DNA of 64,000 bases from an uncultured virus (IMG/VR IMGVR_UViG_3300002349_000003) (taxonomy: Duplodnaviria; Heunggongvirae; Uroviricota; Caudoviricetes): the IMG/VR virus record IMGVR_UViG_3300002349_000003; one strand, written 5' to 3'. The position numbers and the translations under genes are program-made. Numbering within the stretch: the stretch's first letter is position 1; each line of letters begins with the position of its first letter. The notes beneath the pieces are model-generated. The model saw nothing but the letters and a program-made list of their open reading frames with translations. It searched no databases and was not told the DNA's origin. Shown piece after piece: positions 9,957 to 62,895 of the stretch.

Positions 9957-10033
9957 GGGCCTCTAGCTCAATTGGTTAGAGCATCCGACTCATAATCGGC
10001 AGGTTTCAGGTTCAAGTCCTGAGTGGCCCACCA
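9957..10033 (+). tRNA. tRNA with CAT anticodon, probably Ile2 (lysidine type) rather than Met
   Basis: Cloverleaf, CCGAC-TCATAA-TCGG anticodon arm, GGTTCAAGTCC T arm, encoded CCA. Confidence 0.85.
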
Positions 10034-10036
10034 AAT

Positions 10037-10154
10037 GGCATCATCGGAATTACTGTAAAATTCCTTAGCCTATCGGGAATTAAATAAGATAGGAGTGCAC
10101 CGAACCAGCTTGTGCACAATGAGTGGACTGGTGACAGCTTGGAAAGACAAGCAC
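10037..10154 (+). ncRNA. Unidentified structured RNA within the tRNA array
   Basis: Four hairpins (GGAATT/AATTCC, CCTATC/GATAGG, GTGCAC/GTGCAC, GCTTG/CAAGC) and a possible ACCAG/CTGGT pseudoknot; no ORF. Confidence 0.6.
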
Positions 10155-10164
10155 ATTATAATTT

Positions 10165-10239
10165 CTCCATGTAGCATAATGGTAGTGTGTGGGTCCGCAA
10201 AACCTTAAGGTATCGGTTCAAATCCGGTCATGGAGTCCA
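10165..10239 (+). tRNA. tRNA-Cys(GCA)
   Basis: CTCCATG/CATGGAG acceptor, U discriminator, CCA; atypical C at position 33. Confidence 0.8.
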
Positions 10240-10260
10240 ATTGCATAAATACGAAATAAT

Positions 10261-10344
10261 GGAGGTCGAGCGGCATAGGTGACTGCGGCGGACTGTAAAT
10301 CCGTGCCCAAAGGGCACCTGGTTCGAATCCAGGGATCTCCACCA
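10261..10344 (+). tRNA. tRNA-Tyr(GTA)
   Basis: CTGTAAA loop, long variable arm, GGTTCGAATCC, ACCA end. Confidence 0.9.
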
Positions 10345-10364
10345 ATTACAAAGACTTATTAGGT

Positions 10365-10438
10365 GTGACTATGACGGAATTGGTAGACGTCCTCGATTGT
10401 GATTCGAGATTTTGTGGGTTCAAGTCCCACTAGTCACC
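10365..10438 (+). tRNA. tRNA-His(GTG)
   Basis: GTGACTA/TAGTCAC acceptor, TTGTGAT loop; no encoded G-1 or complete CCA. Confidence 0.85.
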
Positions 10439-10455
10439 CCTAATAAGTTTTAAAT

Positions 10456-10530
10456 GCCCTATTAGTATAATGGTTATTACAATTGACTTGTAATCTTTAG
10501 ATTTCGGTTCGATTCCGGAATGGGGCTCCA
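10456..10530 (+). tRNA. tRNA-Thr(TGT)
   Basis: GCCCTAT/ATGGGGC acceptor, CTTGTAA loop, CCA; two mismatches in anticodon stem. Confidence 0.75.
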
Positions 10531-10588
10531 AATGTAGAAATGGTGCTAGGCGTGGCCCACGTTAAAAACAGAATACGCCCTTTATATT

Positions 10589-10662
10589 GCGGGATTAGTT
10601 TAATGATAGAACAGCAGATTTCCAATCTCCTAGTAAGGGTTTGATTCCCTTATCCCGCTCCA
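10589..10662 (+). tRNA. tRNA-Gly(TCC)
   Basis: GCGGGAT/ATCCCGC acceptor, TTTCCAA loop, TCCA; D loop lacks GG and T loop reads TTTGATT. Confidence 0.8.
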
Positions 10663-17308: not shown

Positions 17309-18295
17309 ATGATGATTAACGAATTTTATACAAATGCAATCCAATATGGTAATAAAATACTTGTCAGATCTATTAGAGATGGATTGCCACAAAAGCAGAA
17401 AATCGATTTTTACCCTACCTTATATACCACATCAGGAAAATCTTCAGAATCTTCTTCATTCAAGTCTTTACATGGAGTAGAATTATACGAAATAAAACCG
17501 GGTACCATAAATGATTGCAAAGATTTCATAAAAACTTACGAAAATGCGATGCCTGTGTATGGACAAACAAACTATGCATATCAATATATTGAAGAAAATT
17601 ACAAAACCGATATAAAGTTTGATTCTGACTTATTAAAAATCATTGCTATCGATATAGAAACTGCAAATGAAGAATCTGGTTTTCCTCATCCAAAATACGC
17701 TAATGAAGAAATTCTACTAATTACTGTCAGAGATCTTAAAACTAAATCTACAAAAATATTTGGATCTAGACCTTATGAAGGAAAACATAAAGCAGATTTT
17801 GTCCTTTGTAAAGACGAAAATCAATTACTTCAGCAATTTGTGACTCATTGGCAACAAAGAATCCCTGACATTATTACGGGTTGGAATATTGACAACTTTG
17901 ATATTCCGTACATTATTAATAGACTACTAAGAACTATAGGAGAAGATTATGTTAAAAAACTTTCTCCATGGAATATAGTCAATGAACGTTCTAAAAAGGT
18001 TAATAACGTAGAACAACAGACTTATGAAATACTCGGTGTGTCATCTTTAGACTATATTGAACTCTATAAGAAATATTCTAAAAAAAACCAGGAGTCATAC
18101 AGACTAGACCATATAGCATTTGTAGAACTTGGTGAAAGAAAACTGGATCATAGCCAATGGAATACTTTCAAGGAATTTTACTCTGGTGAATATGACACTC
18201 ATAAAATTAGGCCAGAGTATGAAAATTCGGATACAAAGTCTTATAGAAGAACACAGATAAAATTAGAGTTAATTAGACGCGGACTAACAGTTTAA
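17309..18295 (+). CDS. gp43: Family B DNA polymerase, N-terminal fragment (N domain, ExoI, ExoII)
   Basis: [24 protein letters not shown]; ends before ExoIII. Confidence 0.92.
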
Positions 18296-19133
18296 ATTGT
18301 TTACAGTTTGTGCCATGCCATCTATTATAATTAAGAGGATCAAAACTGCAGTTGCAATATTCACAAAGTATTGATTCTTTCTTTTTCATAGGTGGCAATT
18401 CTATTTCAGATTTGAATACATTTAAAGAACTGTCAAATATTGTCCAAGTTTTAGAAACTAGTCTTGTATTTCCTAGTGTTAAATTATATATTTTCTGTGG
18501 GCTTATTTTTGTTAATTGATGAAATTCTGATATAGTCATATCAAATACATCTTTAGTTATTACATTTTTAAATTTGAAAATGTCTTTTTTAAACCAAGGT
18601 TTACTTTGCTTTGCAATTTTACCAAAATTAATATTTTTACATTCAATAGAACATAATTTCTGGCTAATATTATGTGTAATTATTTCTTTATTACATACGG
18701 AACAATTTATAGTGATATACTTTCTGTTCGATAGCGCTTTCAATGATCTATTCTGTTTAATTATTTCTTTAGTACACGATCTAGAACAACAATTACTGCA
18801 TCCGCTAAATTCTTTATAACAATATTTGCAAATTTTCATTGGCTTAAGTTTTTTAACTCCAGTATTTCCATCTCCGCCATCAGTCTTATTTAGGAGTATA
18901 CCTGTCCCAATGTCTTTTCGCCCATGCCATCTTATCATTCTTCTTTCTATTGCTAATGCTCCAACTTCAGATAAATTCGTTTCTAGGAATATTATCTTTG
19001 TTCTATCCTTTGGCACAGATATTCCTTTATGAATATCATAGGCTCTAGTATTCTTACCTTTTCCAATGTAATATGGTGTTCCGTCTGACTTTCTAATATA
19101 TGCATACACGTAATATATAAGATCGCTGGTCAT
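18273..19133 (-). mobile_element. Free-standing GIY-YIG-like homing endonuclease inserted antisense within gene 43
   Basis: YVYAY...[17 protein letters not shown], several CxxC motifs, C-terminal RWHGTNCK. Confidence 0.85.
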
Positions 19134-19224
19134 GATAGTTCCTTGAATTGTCTTAAGAATGATTAGTGCTACTGGAGCCTAGGAACTCGCGAGTAGCTTT
19201 TTTAGTTTGTACAATCTATTTATA
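19125..19224 (-). promoter_or_regulatory. Late promoter plus structured 5' leader of the endonuclease (copy 1)
   Basis: TATAAATA at 19224-19217; hairpin 19197-19168; homologous copy at 62501-62598 with compensatory changes. Confidence 0.8.
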
Positions 19225-19290
19225 ATATCAATAGATGTTTACTTTTTGTTGTTATTGTGATATTATATACATTTATTATAGGAGAACATT

Positions 19291-20970
19291 ATGTTTAGTG
19301 ATATATCAGATAAAGATTTATTAGATGAATATTATAAATTAGATAAAGAAATAAAGCAAGAATCATGGACTACATATACTGATTACAATTATCATGACGT
19401 ATTGCTTATTGATAAATTGGATGAGCAATTAAAGTTTATCGAGTTACAACTCACAATGGCATATACTGCCAAGATTAATTATCAAGAAGCATTTAGTCCG
19501 GTTAGACTATGGGACTCTACAATCTATCACTATCTTATTAATAAGAACATTATTATTCCTAACATGGACAGAAATGTTAAAGGAGAATTAATGGGTGCCT
19601 ATGTAAAGACTCCTATTACTGGCATTCATAAATGGATCGCGTCATTCGATTTGGCATCATTATATCCTCATCTAATAATGCAATACAATATCAGCCCAGA
19701 AACATTAACAACTACGAAATTGTCATTCACTATTGATAATTTATTAGACAAAATTGAACTTCCAAAAGTTGATTATGCAATTACTGCTAATGGTTGGTGC
19801 TATTCTAAAGATAAGCGCGGATTCCTACCAGAGTTGATGGACACTATGTATGCAAATCGTTCTATGCATAAGAAACAAATGTTAAAGCATGAACAGCAAT
19901 ACGAGAGTGATAAGAACAATAAGGAACTATCAAAAGAAATTTCAAGACTTAATAACTTGCAACTAGCTCTAAAGGAAACACTAAACAGTGCATACGGAGC
20001 TATTGGAATGCCATACTTCCGATATTATGATTTGAGAATGGCAGAATCCATAACATCATCTGGACAGTTCTCGATAAAATGGATAGCAAACAGAATTAAC
20101 AAATATTTGAATTCAGCTTTGAAAACAAATAACACCGATTATATTATTGCTTCGGATACCGATTCTGTGTACGTGTCATTGGAAACTTTGGTCGAAACGA
20201 CTCAAGGTGAAAAATCGACAGAAGATAAAATCAAATTCATGGATTCATTCTGCGGCAAAGTCTTAACTCCGTTAATAGAAAAATCATATATCGAGTTAGC
20301 AGAGTACATGAATGCCTATGAACAAAAGATGCAAATGAAACGAGAAGTACTTGCTGATAAAGGTTTGTGGACGGCTAAGAAAAGATATGCATTAAGAGTT
20401 CATAACTCTGAAGGTGTTCAGTATGATAAACCAAAAATGAAAATTATGGGCATTGAGATTGTAAAGTCATCGACTCCAACTGCCATAAGAGAAAAATTGA
20501 AGTCAACTATTGATATTATTTTTAATGACACTAATTTGGACCTCATAAGATTCATTGAAGACACTAGACAGGAATTTAAAACATTAGCAGTAGAAGATAT
20601 TGCTATTCCAAGTACAGTTAATGGAATGATAAAATTTTCTAATGACAAAACTATTTATTCTAAAGGCTGTCCGATTTATGTCAGAGGAGGTTTATTATAC
20701 AATAAAGTTGTTAAAGATATGAAACTTGATCAGAAGTATCCTTTAATAGGCGCAGGAGACAAATTAAAATATGTTTATTTGAAACTCCCAAATACTATTA
20801 AAGAAGATGTTATTGGATTCCCTACTGAATTACCAATGGAATTCGGATTACATAAGTATATTGACTACAACACTCAGTTTGAAAAAGTGTTCTTGAATCC
20901 ATTAGAAAAGATTGTCGATGCTATTGGTTGGAATTTAAAAGAGCAATCGACTTTAGATGCATTCTTCTAA
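19291..20970 (+). CDS. gp43: Family B DNA polymerase, C-terminal fragment (ExoIII, palm, fingers, thumb, clamp-binding tail)
   Basis: YNYHD, SFDLASLYP, K...NSAYG, SDTDS, KKRY, TLDAFF; own GTTTAC-N18-TATTAT promoter and GGAG SD. Confidence 0.95.
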   Translation: MFSDISDKDLLDEYYKLDKEIKQESWTTYTDYNYHDVLLIDKLDEQLKFIELQLTMAYTAKINYQEAFSPVRLWDSTIYHYLINKNIIIPNMDRNVKGELMGAYVKTPITGIHKWIASFDLASLYPHLIMQYNISPETLTTTKLSFTIDNLLDKIELPKVDYAITANGWCYSKDKRGFLPELMDTMYANRSMHKKQMLKHEQQYESDKNNKELSKEISRLNNLQLALKETLNSAYGAIGMPYFRYYDLRMAESITSSGQFSIKWIANRINKYLNSALKTNNTDYIIASDTDSVYVSLETLVETTQGEKSTEDKIKFMDSFCGKVLTPLIEKSYIELAEYMNAYEQKMQMKREVLADKGLWTAKKRYALRVHNSEGVQYDKPKMKIMGIEIVKSSTPTAIREKLKSTIDIIFNDTNLDLIRFIEDTRQEFKTLAVEDIAIPSTVNGMIKFSNDKTIYSKGCPIYVRGGLLYNKVVKDMKLDQKYPLIGAGDKLKYVYLKLPNTIKEDVIGFPTELPMEFGLHKYIDYNTQFEKVFLNPLEKIVDAIGWNLKEQSTLDAFF

Positions 20971-21030: not shown

Positions 21031-21894
21031 ATGTCAGAATTATTAGCAAAAATTAAAAAGACTTGTACCATTAAAGATTCTTCTGTATTGAGTGCATCAA
21101 AATATTTTAATAAAAAGGATATGATTCAAACTCAGATTCCTGCATTAAATGTTGCATTATCTGGAGAATTGGATGGAGGTTTTGTTCCTGGTCTGACATT
21201 ATGGTGTGGTCCAAGTAAACATTTCAAATCGATGTTTTCATTAATCATGGCTAAAGCTTACATGGACAAATATCCTGAAGCAATTATGATTTTTTATGAT
21301 TGCGAATTTGGAACTCCAACTGCGTATTTTAGTTCTCTTAATATTGATACAAATAGAATTCTTCATGTTCCTGTAATGAATATGGAAGAATTCAAATTTG
21401 ATGTCATTAAACAATTAGAAGGACTTGATAGAGGAGATAGGGTAATTTTTATCATTGACTCTCTAGGTAATATGTCTTCCAAAAAAGAAATGGAAGATGC
21501 TATTGATGGAAAATCAGTACAAGATATGTCTAGAGCTAAACAAATGAAATCAATTTTTAGAATGATTACGCCATATCTTAATAGATTAGACATTCCAATG
21601 GTAGCAGTTAACCACATCTATATGTGTGGAACAGAAGAAATGGAAGTTATTTCGGATAATGGTGCAATTAGTCTAAAAAATATCACGCCGGGAATGTTAG
21701 TGGAAACTACCAATGGACTTCAACCCGTCACTAATGTATTTAAGTATGAGGACGCGTATGTGTCTGATATTGAAATGGAAGACGGCACAATACTATCATT
21801 TACACAAGGACATAGATTCATGGTAAATGGAGAATGGGTCTTTGTAGAGGATCTTCAAGAAGGAATGGAACTTGATATAAAACCCATCTCGTAA
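21031..21894 (+). CDS. uvsX: UvsX recombinase N-extein fused to split N-intein
   Basis: GPSKHFKS, FYDCEFG, IDSLGN, VNHIYM then C-initiated Hint domain (T.GHRF) from 21625. Confidence 0.93.
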   Translation: MSELLAKIKKTCTIKDSSVLSASKYFNKKDMIQTQIPALNVALSGELDGGFVPGLTLWCGPSKHFKSMFSLIMAKAYMDKYPEAIMIFYDCEFGTPTAYFSSLNIDTNRILHVPVMNMEEFKFDVIKQLEGLDRGDRVIFIIDSLGNMSSKKEMEDAIDGKSVQDMSRAKQMKSIFRMITPYLNRLDIPMVAVNHIYMCGTEEMEVISDNGAISLKNITPGMLVETTNGLQPVTNVFKYEDAYVSDIEMEDGTILSFTQGHRFMVNGEWVFVEDLQEGMELDIKPIS

Positions 21895-21935
21895 TTGCAA
21901 TAAATAATTCATATATACATTTTAAAGGGTTTTAT

Positions 21936-22736
21936 ATGAATTATTTGAAACATTACGAATTATTAATTACTAGAGCAAAATCTAGAAGTAAAATTTTAGA
22001 GTATATTGAGAAACATCATATAGTTCCAAAGTGTTTAGGTGGAAATAATGATATTGACAATATTGCTGAACTAACACCAGAGGAACATTATTTTGCCCAT
22101 CAACTACTAGCAAAAATATATCCAGATAATTGCGGGTTAATTAGTGCATGTAAATTGATGGGAGGAAGTATTTCGGGAAAAAGAAGTAATAATAAAATCT
22201 ATGGGTGGATAAGAAGAAAATCTAATATATTGATGGGACAGTCAATTAGGAAACTTCATATTGATAAAAGAGATATGAAGTCTATATCATTAGGATTTGA
22301 AAATTATATTGATATGTCTAAGTCTATATGGGATTTATTCATAACCCATAAATTACATTATACTTCTATAGAAGAAAAATTTGGGGTTAGTCGGCATTTT
22401 ATAAAAAGATCTTTAGAAGTATATGCTAAAGATAATGACTTATTAGATGAGTTAGCTCAAGGTTATTATGATCTTAAGTCAAGCAGTCAAAAACTAGGCA
22501 GATCTAAATTTACTGAAGATCAAGAAAGCAATAGAATAACAGCATTAAAAAATATTGACTATGCCGCTAGATCATTAAAAACCGGTTCTAGAAAAGGATC
22601 ATTAAATCCAACATTTGGTAAAACTTGGTCTCATATTAAAATGATGTGCCCATATTGTAATAAAGAAGTCGGCGGAAAGCGTTGGCATTTTGATAACTGC
22701 AGGAGTAAAAATGAAAATCAAATCAATAAAATTTAA
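21936..22736 (+). mobile_element. Free-standing HNH homing endonuclease between the intein halves
   Basis: EKHHIVPKCLGGNN..N...LTPEEHYFAH; C-terminal CPYC...RWHFDNC; late-type AATAAATA upstream. Confidence 0.9.
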
Positions 22737-23319
22737 TACACGTAAGGCAGATGTTTACGACATTGAAACTCCTACACACGATTATATATTAAAAAACGGA
22801 ATAATTTCTCATAATACACAGGAGCTTTACAGCAAACCTGTAGTTTCTGGTGGAACTGGTGTTTACTTATCTGCTGATAATATTTTTATTCTTGGAAGAC
22901 AACAAGAAAAAGAAGGAACAGAAGTCATTGGTTATAACTTTATCATCAATGTAGAAAAATCAAGATATGTAAGAGAAAAATCAAAAATTCCAATTAGTGT
23001 TCTATTTGAAGGTGGTGTTTCTAAATGGTCAGGATTATTAGAAATGGCATTAGAATCTGGTCATGTCATTAAGCCAAATAATGGTTGGTATTCTAGAGTA
23101 GATAAAATTACTGGTGAGCTTGAAGATAAACGATATAGATTAAAAGATACTATCAATAAAGAATTCTGGCTTCCTATATTAGCAAAAAAGGATTTCCAAC
23201 AATGGATAAAAGAATCTTATAAATTGACAGAATCAGAAATGCTATCTGATTCAGTAATTGAATCAGAATTATCAAAGGTTGAATTAGAGGATTTGGAAAA
23301 AATTTCTGAATTAGTTTAA
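22711..23319 (+). CDS. uvsX: Split C-intein (35 aa) fused to UvsX C-extein
   Basis: AGGAG SD; MKIKSIK...VYDIET..HDY...NGIISHN/T then QELYSKPVVSGGTG, VEKSRYVREKS. Confidence 0.93.
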   Translation: MKIKSIKFNTRKADVYDIETPTHDYILKNGIISHNTQELYSKPVVSGGTGVYLSADNIFILGRQQEKEGTEVIGYNFIINVEKSRYVREKSKIPISVLFEGGVSKWSGLLEMALESGHVIKPNNGWYSRVDKITGELEDKRYRLKDTINKEFWLPILAKKDFQQWIKESYKLTESEMLSDSVIESELSKVELEDLEKISELV

Positions 23320-59217: not shown

Positions 59218-61688
59218 ATGAAAACAGAACCTACATATTTTGAAACTCTTAATGAAGCACTTGAAGCTGAAGGTTTAACACAATTTTGGCCAACAAATCT
59301 AAACATCAACTATGGCGAAAGTGTTTCTATAATCATTAACTTTTTGTCAATATCAATCTATCGTAGCAATACTACTGGTAGATATGAAAGACCTGTCCAT
59401 TATAAAACAATTTAGGAGATTACCATGGTTGTTCAAGATAAAGTAACTGGTAAAATGTATGATCCTCAAGAGGAATTTGATAATTTTTTTAGTCAACCTG
59501 AAGTAACTGAACAAATGGTAAGAATGAAAAATCATGATTATGAACAAATGGTAAGAATGAAAAATCATGATTATGAACAATTAGTTCTTAATATGTACTT
59601 CGGCGGAATGTCAATAAAAGAAATAACGTATGAAATAGGAATTCCTGTTGATGAAGTTAAAAACATTATTTCATACATGTCATCAGCGGAGAATTAAAAT
59701 GAGCATTTATAAAGAAAATGGTTATACCAATAGAAATAATTATTTAAGTCATTTGTCAGAAGATTATGGCATTGAACTTGGAATAGTACTTGAACTTGCG
59801 GATTTATTTGGTCCTGAAGAAGATTTTGATGGATTATTAGAAGCACTAAATGACTATGGCAATTATGGATTTGGAGAGTTATTATGATAGATATTAAAAC
59901 AAACACGGAGAATAACATGAAAGGTCAAATAAGGTTTATATTAGCATTGTTTATTATTTTTACTGCTGTCAATCTAGAAGGAATAGTTGATATGCCAACA
60001 GAACTTACAATTGCTTTTGTTGGTATTATGATTGGAGCTTGGGGAATGGTTGATTCATTGGAGAGAAAATAATGAGCGGAAAGAATTTTATCTATTTTAT
60101 TGATGTACTATTAGCAGTTTCTATACTGCCATTCTTTTTCTACATTGCAACTTCTGGATTCTTTGTTGTTGCAGCATTCTTTATCATTCTGATAATTGAG
60201 ATGATGGTCGATTATACTCGAGTTAGAAAGTACTTTGTCAATATGATGTTAAGAGCAAAATGCGATGTCTGATATAATTAACAAACTTAGAGAAGAACAA
60301 TCAAGATTGTATTGCAACTTACAAGTCAAATACGACCAATTGTTCCGACTTGAAGATGAAGTAAAACGACTGAAGTATGAAATATTTAGAATGGAAATAG
60401 ATAAATGTTTGGTTGAACATGACTTAGGAAAGGAACTCAAGAATGAAAATAAATCCAACGGTAATTAATTACATTATCAATAGTAATATCAAGTACAGAC
60501 AAGACCTAGAATCAATGGTGGATACTATGAAATTCAATCAAGTGCTTACTCAAATCAAAGAAGCAAATGCTGTTGCTCATTTGATTGATGTTCAAAACAA
60601 ACAACATAATGATGGACTATACAAAGATCCTACTTGGATTAATGGTGTTCATTGTCACAATTCAATCAGCAAACACAACTATACTAAACTATGAAAATTG
60701 AAATTGGAAAAACTTACGGGACTGGACATGGCACTAAAGTTACTATTGTAGGAACAGATTATACCATTCGTTCTGATTATAAATTTATTGGCACCACTTT
60801 TGATGGTTCAGTAAGAACTTATGATAACTATAACGAGCAAGGTATATGTTTATTCGGCGATTGGGATAGTAATTTATTAAAGGAATTTAACAGATCATTC
60901 GGATTTCCTGAAACTGAAAAACCTTATCATGGAACTCCATATTACTTTCCAGATATGTCACCTGATGGATACTCTGGCTGTACTTGGTCCGATGATGCAT
61001 TCGACCATTGTCTATTGATAAATGGACTGCTATATTTGGATAAAGAGGATGCTATTCAGGCGTCTGAAATCATAATTAATCTGCTAAAGGAGTATAATGA
61101 AAATCGTATCAAAAGAAGAGATAATGGAGAGACTTGGCTGTTCAAAAACCCAGGTTGAGATGGCGGAATATTCTGGTTATATCCCACCTTCAAAAGATGG
61201 AGTTTGGGATGCCGATAAACTTGAAGAATATTTGGTAAGATGGGATGCTAAACTCAAACGTAAAGCGGAATCAATGCAATGACTAGTCATTGCAAAGGAT
61301 GTAAATACCATCACATTGCAGGACATCCTAAAGATTCAAGATTAATAAAGCATAATGATTGGTGCTGTGCTTTTGGTAAAACTGCGTCAAAATGCGTTGG
61401 TCATTGTAAACTACAAAATGCTAAGGAACCGAAATGAGCGATTTAATCCAACTAGTAAGCAAAAAAGAAAAACCATCTGATGCTGAATTCCAAAAGCAAC
61501 TAGATGATGAATACTATGAACAGATGACTGATCTTAGAGATGAAATAGATTTGGCTCTCACGTTAGCATATACCAAAGATGGATTACTATTGACGGTATC
61601 TAATGGAGTTGATTCAAAAACTGCTCTTTGGATGATTGAAGAGTTTCGGATGAATTTGTTAACTGGTTCATTTAACGATTATAAATAA
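59218..61688 (+). other. Run of about 12 small early hypothetical ORFs
   Basis: Tightly packed, often coupled ORFs of 50-155 aa with SD sequences behind an early promoter at 59157. Confidence 0.65.
59508..59580 (+). repeat. 33-bp exact tandem duplication
   Basis: TGAACAAATGGTAAGAATGAAAAATCATGATTA twice plus a partial copy; EQMVRMKNHDY x2. Confidence 0.9.
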
Positions 61689-61701
61689 GGAATAAAAATG
61701 C

Positions 61702-61729
61702 AAACTGGGAATATTACAGTTCCCAGTTT
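61702..61729. terminator. Hairpin between convergent genes (possible bidirectional terminator)
   Basis: AAACTGGGAA/TTCCCAGTTT stem. Confidence 0.65.
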
Positions 61730-61738
61730 CCTAATTAT

Positions 61739-62509
61739 CTAAAAATATTGTTTAAATTCAGGATATAATCTAGAAATACATGGTTTAGTATAAGTCTTTC
61801 TAGTTTCAATAATCGATAAGAATTTTGGTTGAGGAATTCCTTTCTTTGCTGCAGATATATTTGGTTGCTTCTTGCCTTTCTTTGTGGCGGATAATTTGTT
61901 ACCAAATCCTTCTGGTTTAGGAATGCCAGTTTTTACATAAGATAATTTTGCACCAAATCCTTCTGGTTTAGGAATGCCTTTAGTACTAGATGATAATTTT
62001 GCACCAAATCCTTCTGGTTTAGGAATTCCTTTAGTACTAGATGATAATTTTGCACCAAATCCTTCTGGTTTAGGAATTCCTTTATTTTTAGAAATTCCTC
62101 TATTTCCAGGTTTTCCTTTATTATGAGCCGGTTTTCCTTTTGCTGAAGCAGATCGTTTAGCATTAGATTCTTCTGATTGTTTCTTGCCAGAAGTAGTAAA
62201 TCTGATTTTACTACCGTGATGACATCTTCTGTTAAGCATCAATGGATTTTTAAGTTCTTGGTATATTAGAAACTGTTCTAGGTCGTATGCCTCGAGTGGA
62301 TCAACAAATTCCTGGATGATGGTATAGTTAAATTCTTGGAATCTTGGTTCAACTGTTTTTGATGATGTAAAATAGTCAATACCTAAATCCTGATTTGCTG
62401 GGACTTTATTGGCTTTACGAAATCCAAAATAAAATTCGCCAGTAGTTGGATTGTCTAGTCTATAGACATAGGATAATACTGGTTCTTGATATATACTTGT
62501 GCTGGTCAT
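61739..62509 (-). mobile_element. GIY-YIG-like (Seg-type) homing endonuclease with NUMOD3-like tandem repeats
   Basis: YVYRL.N..TGEFYFGFR, YFTSSK, LE..LI, LN; four 17-aa repeats GIPKPEGFGAKLS (51-bp period). Confidence 0.8.
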
Positions 62510-62598
62510 GATAGTTCCTTGAATTATTGATAGAATGATTAGTGCTAGTGGGATGTAGGAGTCCGCGACTAGCTTTTTGTTTGTATGATCTATTTATA
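62501..62598 (-). promoter_or_regulatory. Late promoter plus structured 5' leader (copy 2)
   Basis: TATAAATA at 62598-62591; hairpin 62573-62544; homologous to 19125-19224. Confidence 0.8.
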
Positions 62599-62661
62599 AG
62601 ATTTAGATGTTGACATTTTTAGAATAGATGATATAATAGATTTTTATCATGAGGAAATAAA

Positions 62662-62895
62662 ATGCAGGTACTTGGCAAAAACGTATTAGTGTTAAAACAG
62701 AAACTAGAATATACTGGATTGATTCAAGGTGTAGAGTCTGATGATAATATTAGAGCAAAGGCAATGAATCTTGGTGATGACGTTACCCTAGTGGAATTAG
62801 GTAATATTCTTATCCTTAACTGGAAGAAAGCTAAATGGGTATCAGGTGAGTTGTATGTTATCCATGAAGATGAAATAGCCGCAATTATTGAATAA
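62662..62895 (+). CDS. GroES-like co-chaperonin
   Basis: MQVLGKNVLV, G.DV..V..G, I.EDEIAAIIE. Confidence 0.7.
   Translation: MQVLGKNVLVLKQKLEYTGLIQGVESDDNIRAKAMNLGDDVTLVELGNILILNWKKAKWVSGELYVIHEDEIAAIIE

Follow-up and report, generated by a model that had tools for sequence, protein, structure and literature searches.

A covarying cassette at the 5' ends of homing-endonuclease genes in uncultured T4-like phages and its predicted cis-antisense RNA

Homing endonucleases need enough expression to spread, but not enough to harm the phage, and the control of their free-standing genes was called largely open in a 2010 review (Edgell, Gibb and Belfort, PMC2988022). Among the systems that this source describes are the T-even homing-endonuclease hairpins with an embedded late or middle promoter, known for I-TevI, I-TevII, I-TevIII, segB and Aeh1 mobE; in the I-TevI type the hairpin holds the Shine-Dalgarno (SD) sequence and encloses the late promoter, which allows late transcripts to escape. 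The same source describes a stable hairpin just upstream of the ribosome-binding site (RBS) of seg43(25), a seg gene splitting gene 43 in Aeromonas phage 25. CfrI of cyanophage S-PM2, an antisense RNA of ~225 nt to a homing-endonuclease gene and psbA (Millard et al. 2010, as described in PMC2984593), is the only phage precedent found in print in open-access text. Yet another element, the PeSL, is a conserved ~100-bp unit of a sigma70-type promoter and a terminating stem-loop, which moves together with non-essential genes and apparently serves modular shuffling (PMC2839356, PMC4122927). The stretch considered here, 64,000 nt from an uncultured virus of the Caudoviricetes (IMG/VR record IMGVR_UViG_3300002349_000003; the whole stretch is called the window below), contains two copies, A and B, of a compact covarying cassette that, in many uncultured phages of aquatic origin, precedes nuclease genes of two or more unrelated families. 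Judged from their sequence, both are on balance probably copies of a portable cassette making a cis-antisense RNA of ~83 nt that restrains the nuclease.

The cassette family

Nucleotides 19125-19197 (copy A) and 62501-62573 (copy B) of the window align without gaps, with 59 of the 73 bases identical, as a first-pass annotation of this DNA had counted by hand. The similarity spans the entire intergenic region and the first three codons of two minus-strand open reading frames (ORFs), 18273-19133 and 61739-62509, both of which begin MTS, again as annotated, and look like free-standing homing endonucleases. The minus-strand RNA readings given there were also correct, including three compensatory swaps between the two copies, one in the outer and two in the inner stem of a hairpin. 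The hairpin pattern GCTASTCGCGNNNTCCTANNNNCCASTAGC, with up to three mismatches, is matched exactly twice in the window, at 19168-19197 and 62544-62573 on the minus strand, while 100 dinucleotide-preserving shuffles gave a mean of 0.00 matches. The late-promoter box TATAAATA that had been noted upstream of both copies is present 17-19 nt from the hairpin, and by this sequence match it is the predicted promoter of the endonuclease mRNA (minus strand, 19217-19224 for copy A and 62591-62598 for copy B). Behind other TATAAATA boxes in the window there are different hairpins or none, so the hairpin is not a general feature of late leaders here.

Scans of IMG/VR with ambiguity patterns (the code of the International Union of Pure and Applied Chemistry), each leaving different parts free, gave ~33 distinct contexts. 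Because the first of these scans held the columns GCT, TCGCG, CCA and AGC fixed, a constraint relaxed only by the later model-based searches, whole records were searched with covariance models: R1, built from 29 contexts, the later model R2, and the two-hairpin model R3, the E-values of all being rough. Applied to whole records, R1 found more divergent copies in four of five, and R2 gave 90 matches in 49 of the 49 viral records searched whole, some of which overlap one another, with up to eight matches on one contig. Sixty-one matches or loci reduced to 50 distinct variants. In the window itself R1 and R3, run with filters off, found no copies beyond A and B, which both stand at nuclease genes; the best R3 score after these two is 16 bits. 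The 74-kb IMG/VR contig with eight copies (G014), the stems and loops of which differ, has an unusually high load of endonuclease genes.

The covariation claimed from the two window copies holds in the family. Among 26 distinct hairpin sequences 96.9% of the cells are paired, changes on both sides occur in six of the ten pairs, and none of 500 shuffles matched the observed pairing or covariation score; in the 50 variants all outer-stem pairs covary, the closing U-A excepted. The element described in the first-pass annotation as an invariant CGC/C internal loop is conserved, but consists of two invariant bulged C residues around one purine-pyrimidine pair (G-C in 42 variants, A-U in 7, A-C in 1). 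The UCCUA loop, likewise called invariant, is so between the two window copies, but only a few variants have it, and across the family the loop is free in both sequence and length (CCCC, CGCCAA, CACUAU, UGAC and others); the proposed pseudoknot between loop UCCU and the SD is therefore not a family feature. A scan in which the loop was fixed and the stems were left free gave 28 loci, in which the family members were known variants only and the rest were GC-rich chance matches.

At gathering thresholds Rfam 15 gives only five tRNAs in the window, and the segment 19080-19300 has no match on either strand up to E 10; no description of this cassette was found in the open-access literature. The element is thus confirmed as a large family absent from Rfam, with a real covarying RNA-type structure at the 5' ends of nuclease genes. 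The only cultured or named carrier found is Pseudoalteromonas phage vB_Psh_XG4, with one copy. Model searches found no copy in T4, Aeromonas phage 25, Aeh1, S-SRM01, S-N03 or S-PM2 (in the first three R1 scored at most 19 bits, at E 0.12), a blastn search of named phages with the leader was negative, and the nearest record available (G001) has no cassette copy.

The genes behind the cassette are GIY-YIG-like, of several subfamilies, or HNH (L248/L288, L283, L290, L306, L249/L251), or other ORFs. The first ~7 codons (M-x-S-x-x-x-Y) move with the cassette, even onto HNH genes. In L249 and L251, both from the 372-kb complete record G002, the cassette ATG opens a 17-codon ORF and the HNH gene follows ~50 nt further, so that the cassette start codon persists there as an upstream ORF.

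The strand that folds

In the first-pass annotation the fold was placed in the late mRNA, i.e., on the minus strand. The first pointers to the plus strand were the T-run after the hairpin and gene-strand stems almost without G-U but with A-C. In the hairpin alone, G-U and A-C were equally frequent at the loop-closing pair and stood at 3:0 in the stems, too few for a decision. The 40 variants with the linker NCUAAWCAU were aligned in the plus orientation, and the other ten of the 50 were treated separately. For this alignment RNAalifold gave two hairpins with 19 pairs, ten of them with changes on both sides; 99.6% of the 760 cells are paired, and pairing and covariation score were matched in none of 500 shuffles. 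For the gene strand RNAalifold gave the hairpin alone, with no second helix.

The additional helix, helix 2, has eight base pairs, CUGGWCAU:AUGWUUAG (W, A or U), two of them G-U. In copy A it occupies 19126-19166 on the plus strand, where in the RNAalifold consensus CUGGUCAU (19126-19133) pairs with AUGAUUAG (19159-19166), and encloses the complement of the SD of the nuclease gene; in copy B 62502-62509 pairs with 62535-62542. All 320 cells of helix 2 are paired on the plus strand, 247 as Watson-Crick and 73 as G-U, whereas on the gene strand the 247 Watson-Crick pairs are accompanied by 73 mismatches, all A-C. The terminator-like hairpin, with 440 cells, has 430 Watson-Crick pairs on either strand, with 7 G-U and 3 mismatches on the plus strand and 3 G-U and 7 mismatches on the gene strand. 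Since helix 2 pairs on the plus strand and is A-C mismatched on the gene strand, the conserved fold is that of the plus strand, opposite the nuclease gene, and not that of the late mRNA. Counts of G-U versus A-C can in this way assign the strand of a fold where sequence alone suggests the opposite one.

The minimum free energy (MFE) is lower on the plus strand in 49 of the 50 variants, with means of -20.8 versus -14.2 kcal/mol. For copy A the values are -23.3 kcal/mol (z -2.0) on the plus and -12.6 kcal/mol (z -0.8) on the minus strand, and for copy B -24.2 (z -2.7) and -10.7 kcal/mol (z -1.7), respectively. Nine of the ten variants outside the alignment are also more stable on the plus strand, and the printed MFE structures of the ten show two adjacent hairpins. 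In about half of these ten (for example L249, L293 and L250) a CUCC/UCCU-type anti-SD run, read by eye, is located in the short loop of the first hairpin.

These results bear on the possibility that the fold acts in the nuclease mRNA, where the 5' hairpin and an anti-start linker (WCAU:AUGW) would attenuate translation in cis, perhaps with a protein bound at the bulged C. The hairpin does covary and forms on the gene strand too, and the pairing of UCAU with the AUGA start suggested in the first-pass annotation retains support in the covariation of W with nucleotide +4 (A-U in 16, U-A in 13, other in 3 of 32 distinct sequences). In the subfamily of L003, L006, L007 and L038 the start codon is fully paired, with a probability of being unpaired of 0.00, and since roughly every second variant has the TATAAATA box no more than 8 nt from the hairpin, the hairpin would head the 5' end of the late mRNA there. 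Against this, the second helix is missing from the gene-strand consensus and nearly a quarter of its cells (73/320) are mismatched on that strand, the minus-strand fold is the weaker one in all variants but one, most variants leave the start codon about half open (probability unpaired 0.4-0.6), and with a loop that is not conserved there is no loop-SD pairing. A role of the fold in the mRNA as the whole explanation is accordingly considered quite improbable. Another pairing, in which the 5' arm would bind the coding start (GCUGGUCA:UGACCAGC), is the MFE structure only in the GCUGGU variants (L085, L120, L184) and is not maintained, because the arms vary while CCAGC does not.

A function at the level of DNA was also considered, in which a ~100-bp block would be kept as a recombination site shuffling nuclease genes, as proposed for PeSLs, or as a DNA hairpin or cruciform, with no RNA function. 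The same inner hairpins are indeed found on different outer stems and beside either type of linker, as if the block had recombined internally, the nuclease ORFs fused to it are unrelated, and the stems of the hairpin are almost purely Watson-Crick. Recombination alone, however, gives neither compensatory changes at 10 of 19 pairs nor a helix tolerating G-U on one strand only, which leaves this explanation with very little probability.

Terminator, facing boxes and the predicted antisense RNA

A U-tract (at least five T in eight positions) follows the hairpin on the plus strand in 47 of the 50 variants and on the gene strand in none. The pairs at the base of the hairpin are G-C in 46 and C-G in 39 of the 50 variants. 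A stable stem-loop with a G-C base and a U-tract directly behind it is what characterizes intrinsic terminators, and by its sequence the plus-strand structure is a predicted one; a simple terminator scan did not call it because of the bulges. In copy A the hairpin (19168-19197, with the two bulged C residues on the minus strand) is followed by the T-run 19198-19203, and in copy B the hairpin 62544-62573 is followed by the U-tract 62574-62583. The gene-strand TATAAATA box lies upstream of the hairpin in all 50 variants, at a distance of 3-37 nt; where it is far from the hairpin, as in the window, the tract is supplied by an A-run of the gene strand.

Codons 5-8 of the nuclease genes read TATTTATA, which on the plus strand is TATAAATA, a second late-type box facing the first. 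Compared with TATAAATA, the facing box matches at 8/8 positions in 20 variants, 7/8 in 25 and 6/8 in 5, and its ATAAATA part is perfect (7/7) in 26 of the 50. The facing boxes of the window are AATATATA (plus strand, 19112-19119) and GATATATA (plus strand, 62488-62495), each matching ATAAATA at 6/7 positions and located 5 nt before G19125 and G62501, respectively. Of the 48 variants scored, 43 have this distance of 5 nt between the box and the G opening helix 2, three have 4 nt and two 6 nt; the spacing fits the geometry of T4 late promoters, the box of which is located at -13 to -6 (PMC1524935). The spacing holds in short forms with CAGC before the ATG and is therefore independent of the reading frame. 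Conservation falls directly beyond the facing box; the plot showing this was anchored on the best box match, so that the box columns themselves are circular. Candidate late-promoter box forms include NATATATA and TATAAGTA. At one locus, L297, the facing box is degenerate and no ORF of at least 60 codons stands behind the cassette, which is possibly the site of a decayed endonuclease gene with the RNA part kept.

According to the preferred reading, a cassette of ~110-130 bp heads free-standing homing-endonuclease genes in uncultured T4-like phages and contains two facing late-type boxes. The gene-strand TATAAATA would drive the nuclease mRNA, and the facing box, within nuclease codons 5-8 on the opposite strand, would start a short RNA at the G of GCUGG. 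The predicted RNA has two hairpins and is ~83 nt long in the window (plus strand, 19125-19207 for copy A, R3 87.8 bits, E 7e-18; 62501-62583 for copy B, R3 90.8 bits, E 1e-18) and ~65-90 nt long in the family. Helix 2 would close the complement of the RBS and start codon of the gene, and the bulged hairpin with its U-tract would act as an intrinsic terminator, stopping transcription just short of the mRNA promoter. The RNA as predicted is perfectly complementary to the entire 5' leader and the first 9 coding bases, and would therefore pair with the nuclease mRNA; in copy A the covered region includes the leader, the SD and the start codon (19131-19133, minus strand), and the geometry of copy B is the same. 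Such pairing would block the RBS and the start codon and would probably expose the duplex to RNase, and as a result the potentially toxic nuclease would be held at a low level. That the facing box fires and that the RNA accumulates is inferred; repression of the nuclease by pairing is suggested by this geometry and by analogy with known cis-antisense systems (IS10 RNA-OUT and SymR). The purpose proposed in the first-pass annotation, a device limiting a toxic nuclease, thus remains the most likely one, but the means is likely an antisense RNA and not a switch in the mRNA leader.

Both nuclease genes of the window run antisense to the early-type genes around them. Transcripts reading through from these neighbours would carry both hairpins and end at the same terminator, after which an outward sigma70-like promoter would restart the next host gene; on the plus strand the order terminator, sigma70-like promoter, next host gene is found at each window copy. 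At copy A this promoter, TTTACT-17-TATTAT (plus strand, 19238-19266; 9/12 hexamer match, with TG before the second hexamer), stands before the second piece of the DNA polymerase gene, and at copy B the promoter TTGACA-16-TATAAT (plus strand, 62610-62637; 12/12) is followed by GAGGAA and the ATG of ORF 62662-62895; both are pattern matches only. The plus-strand structure might then be a terminator or insulator and nothing else, similar to PeSLs, which would end host read-through past an antisense nuclease gene and leave the sigma70 promoter to restart the next gene, with no small RNA. The frequency of the U-tract suits such a function, as do the outward sigma70-like promoters with at least 11/12 hexamer matches found within ~40 nt in 7 of 38 contexts, copy B included, an upstream neighbour that a crude ORF test places on the opposite strand in ~28 of 37 contexts, the imperfect facing boxes of the window, and the fact that a promoter joined to a terminating stem-loop, the PeSL, has been documented in T4-like phages (PMC2839356, PMC4122927). 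It leaves unexplained, however, a helix 2 that is 100% paired with 73 G-U pairs, the box fixed 5 nt from this helix, the invariant bulges, and the retention of the element at nuclease genes that share the orientation of their neighbours (L006 type); moreover, the 64 kb of the window contain just two copies, both at nuclease genes, despite many other intergenic regions. Termination as the sole function is therefore regarded as unlikely. The three alternatives, i.e., terminator only, a role in the mRNA and a DNA module, are not mutually exclusive with the antisense RNA.

Several points weigh against an antisense RNA. The existence, the start and the end of the plus-strand small RNA are predictions. 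All 49 records searched whole had been selected for already having a copy, and several columns were fixed in the early scans. The hairpin forms on the gene strand as well, at approximately -10 kcal/mol, and by this folding may have a role in the mRNA. The facing boxes of the window, AATATATA and GATATATA, are imperfect, with T at the fifth box position, the one mismatch within ATAAATA; ATATATA-type facing boxes are found in 9 of the 50 variants. Because the facing box overlaps the codons of the GIY motif (ATT TAT A), its conservation could be partly due to protein coding; the HNH fusions, and a spacing that does not depend on the frame, make such a contribution less likely. Finally, in seven contexts (L050, L073, L076, L041, L084, L091 and L065) the neighbouring opposite-strand gene starts no more than ~40 nt from the U-tract, leaving no room for a promoter, and the terminator would therefore be leaky there or the gene served otherwise.

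If the antisense RNA is real, it joins the known controls of homing endonucleases, i.e., promoter choice, RBS hairpins and autorepression, provides a new phage RNA family for Rfam, and explains how nuclease genes can lie antisense inside essential operons, here within the DNA polymerase gene, without disturbance. A bolder extension can be offered only tentatively: the cassette might be a mobile promoter-small RNA-promoter governor that any homing-endonuclease gene can gain by recombination, and the first conserved regulatory small-RNA family in T4-like phages. The RNA of one copy might even target every nuclease mRNA of a genome in trans, since copies hardly differ in the RBS-complementary part (the two window RNAs share their first 25 nt), with the variable bulged hairpin giving copy-specific loop-loop recognition. 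Loop-loop recognition is used by plasmid copy-control RNAs.

Genomic setting and comparison with described systems

The window, with a G+C content of 32.7%, comes from a distant T4-like myovirus, its best matches being the DNA polymerase gp43 and UvsX, and the public sequencing runs that contain it are freshwater and lake metagenomes, none of those listed being an RNA run. Most of its genes are on the plus strand; the two nuclease genes are on the minus strand. Endonuclease A (18273-19133, 286 aa) is probably of the GIY-YIG type. It matches PHROG 15526 at 4e-20, the function of which is not annotated, has in tblastn 47% identity to an ORF of a Pseudoalteromonas phage and ~50% to cyanophage ORFs, one of them annotated as Seg-like, and has a weak PDB match to GIY-YIG chains (E 0.029). 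Endonuclease B (61739-62509, 256 aa) has a GIY-YIG-like N-terminus and NUMOD3-like repeats, matches PHROG 314 'homing endonuclease' at 1.6e-13, and has in tblastn ~30% identity to ORFs annotated as GIY-YIG homing endonucleases in Salmonella, Dickeya and Klebsiella phages. Pfam detects no domain in either protein even at E 5, except for one NUMOD3 trace; this trace, at E 5, belongs to the tandem KGIPKPEGFGAKLSSST-like repeats of endonuclease B (61900-62130, minus strand), which resemble NUMOD3 DNA-binding modules.

Copy A arrived with an insert (18181-19379) that splits gp43 into 17309-18295, the exonuclease part, and 19291-20970, the polymerase part. On a related-phage contig from sequencing run X11 gp43 is unsplit, with 18180 joined to 19380 through 24 other letters, and the PHROG 262 profile (856 positions) is matched by the first ORF at positions 4-331 and by the second at 300-851. 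A loose end at 19175 in run X15, which continues as the copy B hairpin, proved to be copy B placed on copy A and not a recombinant. The UvsX gene (21031-23319) is also interrupted: its N-part, 21031-21894, ends with a weak Hint/intein match, an HNH endonuclease ORF follows at 21936-22736, and the C-part, 22690-23319, has a weak intein C-terminal match, which altogether looks like an intein with its endonuclease, read as three ORFs. The five tRNA genes form a cluster on the plus strand at 9957-10659. Between the plus-strand ORF 61434-61688 and the 3' end of endonuclease B, at 61680-61740, there is a strong hairpin, AAACUGGGAA...UUCCCAGUUU (-15.7 kcal/mol), probably a two-way terminator, and directly before it, at 61680, a plus-strand TATAAATA.

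Like the I-TevI type, the cassette combines an RNA structure with a TATAAATA late promoter before a phage homing-endonuclease gene, presumably to limit or delay translation of the nuclease (PMC2988022). It nevertheless differs from the I-TevI arrangement, as the first-pass annotation had also noted. The SD lies outside the hairpin, 30-45 nt beyond its downstream end, and is unpaired with a probability of 0.37-0.98; the late box precedes the hairpin, and a box inside the hairpin was seen in none of the 50 variants. Unlike in the I-TevI type, the conserved fold is on the opposite strand, with a facing box and a terminator of its own. The likeness to seg43(25), as far as it is described in PMC2988022, consists in a seg-type free-standing gene that splits the DNA polymerase gene and in a hairpin upstream of the RBS that does not sequester it; in the genome of Aeromonas phage 25 there is no sequence match and no match with R1 or R3. 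CfrI, which is co-expressed with its homing-endonuclease gene and thought to regulate it (PMC2984593), resembles the RNA predicted here in being antisense to such a gene of a T4-like phage. It differs in its greater length and in linking the gene to psbA, PMC2984593 does not present it as a portable cassette, and R3 had no match in the S-PM2 genome (NC_006820) at E up to 1.

PeSLs occur many per genome, mainly beside ORFans in hyperplastic regions, and their stem-loop is mostly located within or over the promoter, as described in PMC2839356 and PMC4122927. Like them, copies A and B have a sigma70-type promoter, recognized by pattern, joined to a terminating stem-loop. Unlike PeSLs, the cassette is nuclease-specific, is marked by a pair of facing late boxes, by helix 2 and by its invariant bulges, and is represented by two copies in 64 kb in place of many copies beside ORFans.

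In IS10 RNA-OUT/RNA-IN and in the type I toxin-antitoxin systems SymR/symE and Sok/hok, a selfish element restrains its own nuclease, transposase or toxin through a short, stably folded cis-antisense RNA, which is transcribed from a facing promoter and covers the RBS. Bulges in antisense stems are also a known feature, as in CopA. The carriers of these systems are others, i.e., insertion sequences, plasmids and chromosomes, and their promoters are of the host type, whereas the cassette has T4-type late boxes and homing-endonuclease cargo, and no sequence relation is known. What the cassette has in common with the RNA-OUT and SymR type is the overlap of the predicted RNA with the RBS and the start codon, seen in its geometry, and a conserved stable fold on the antisense strand.

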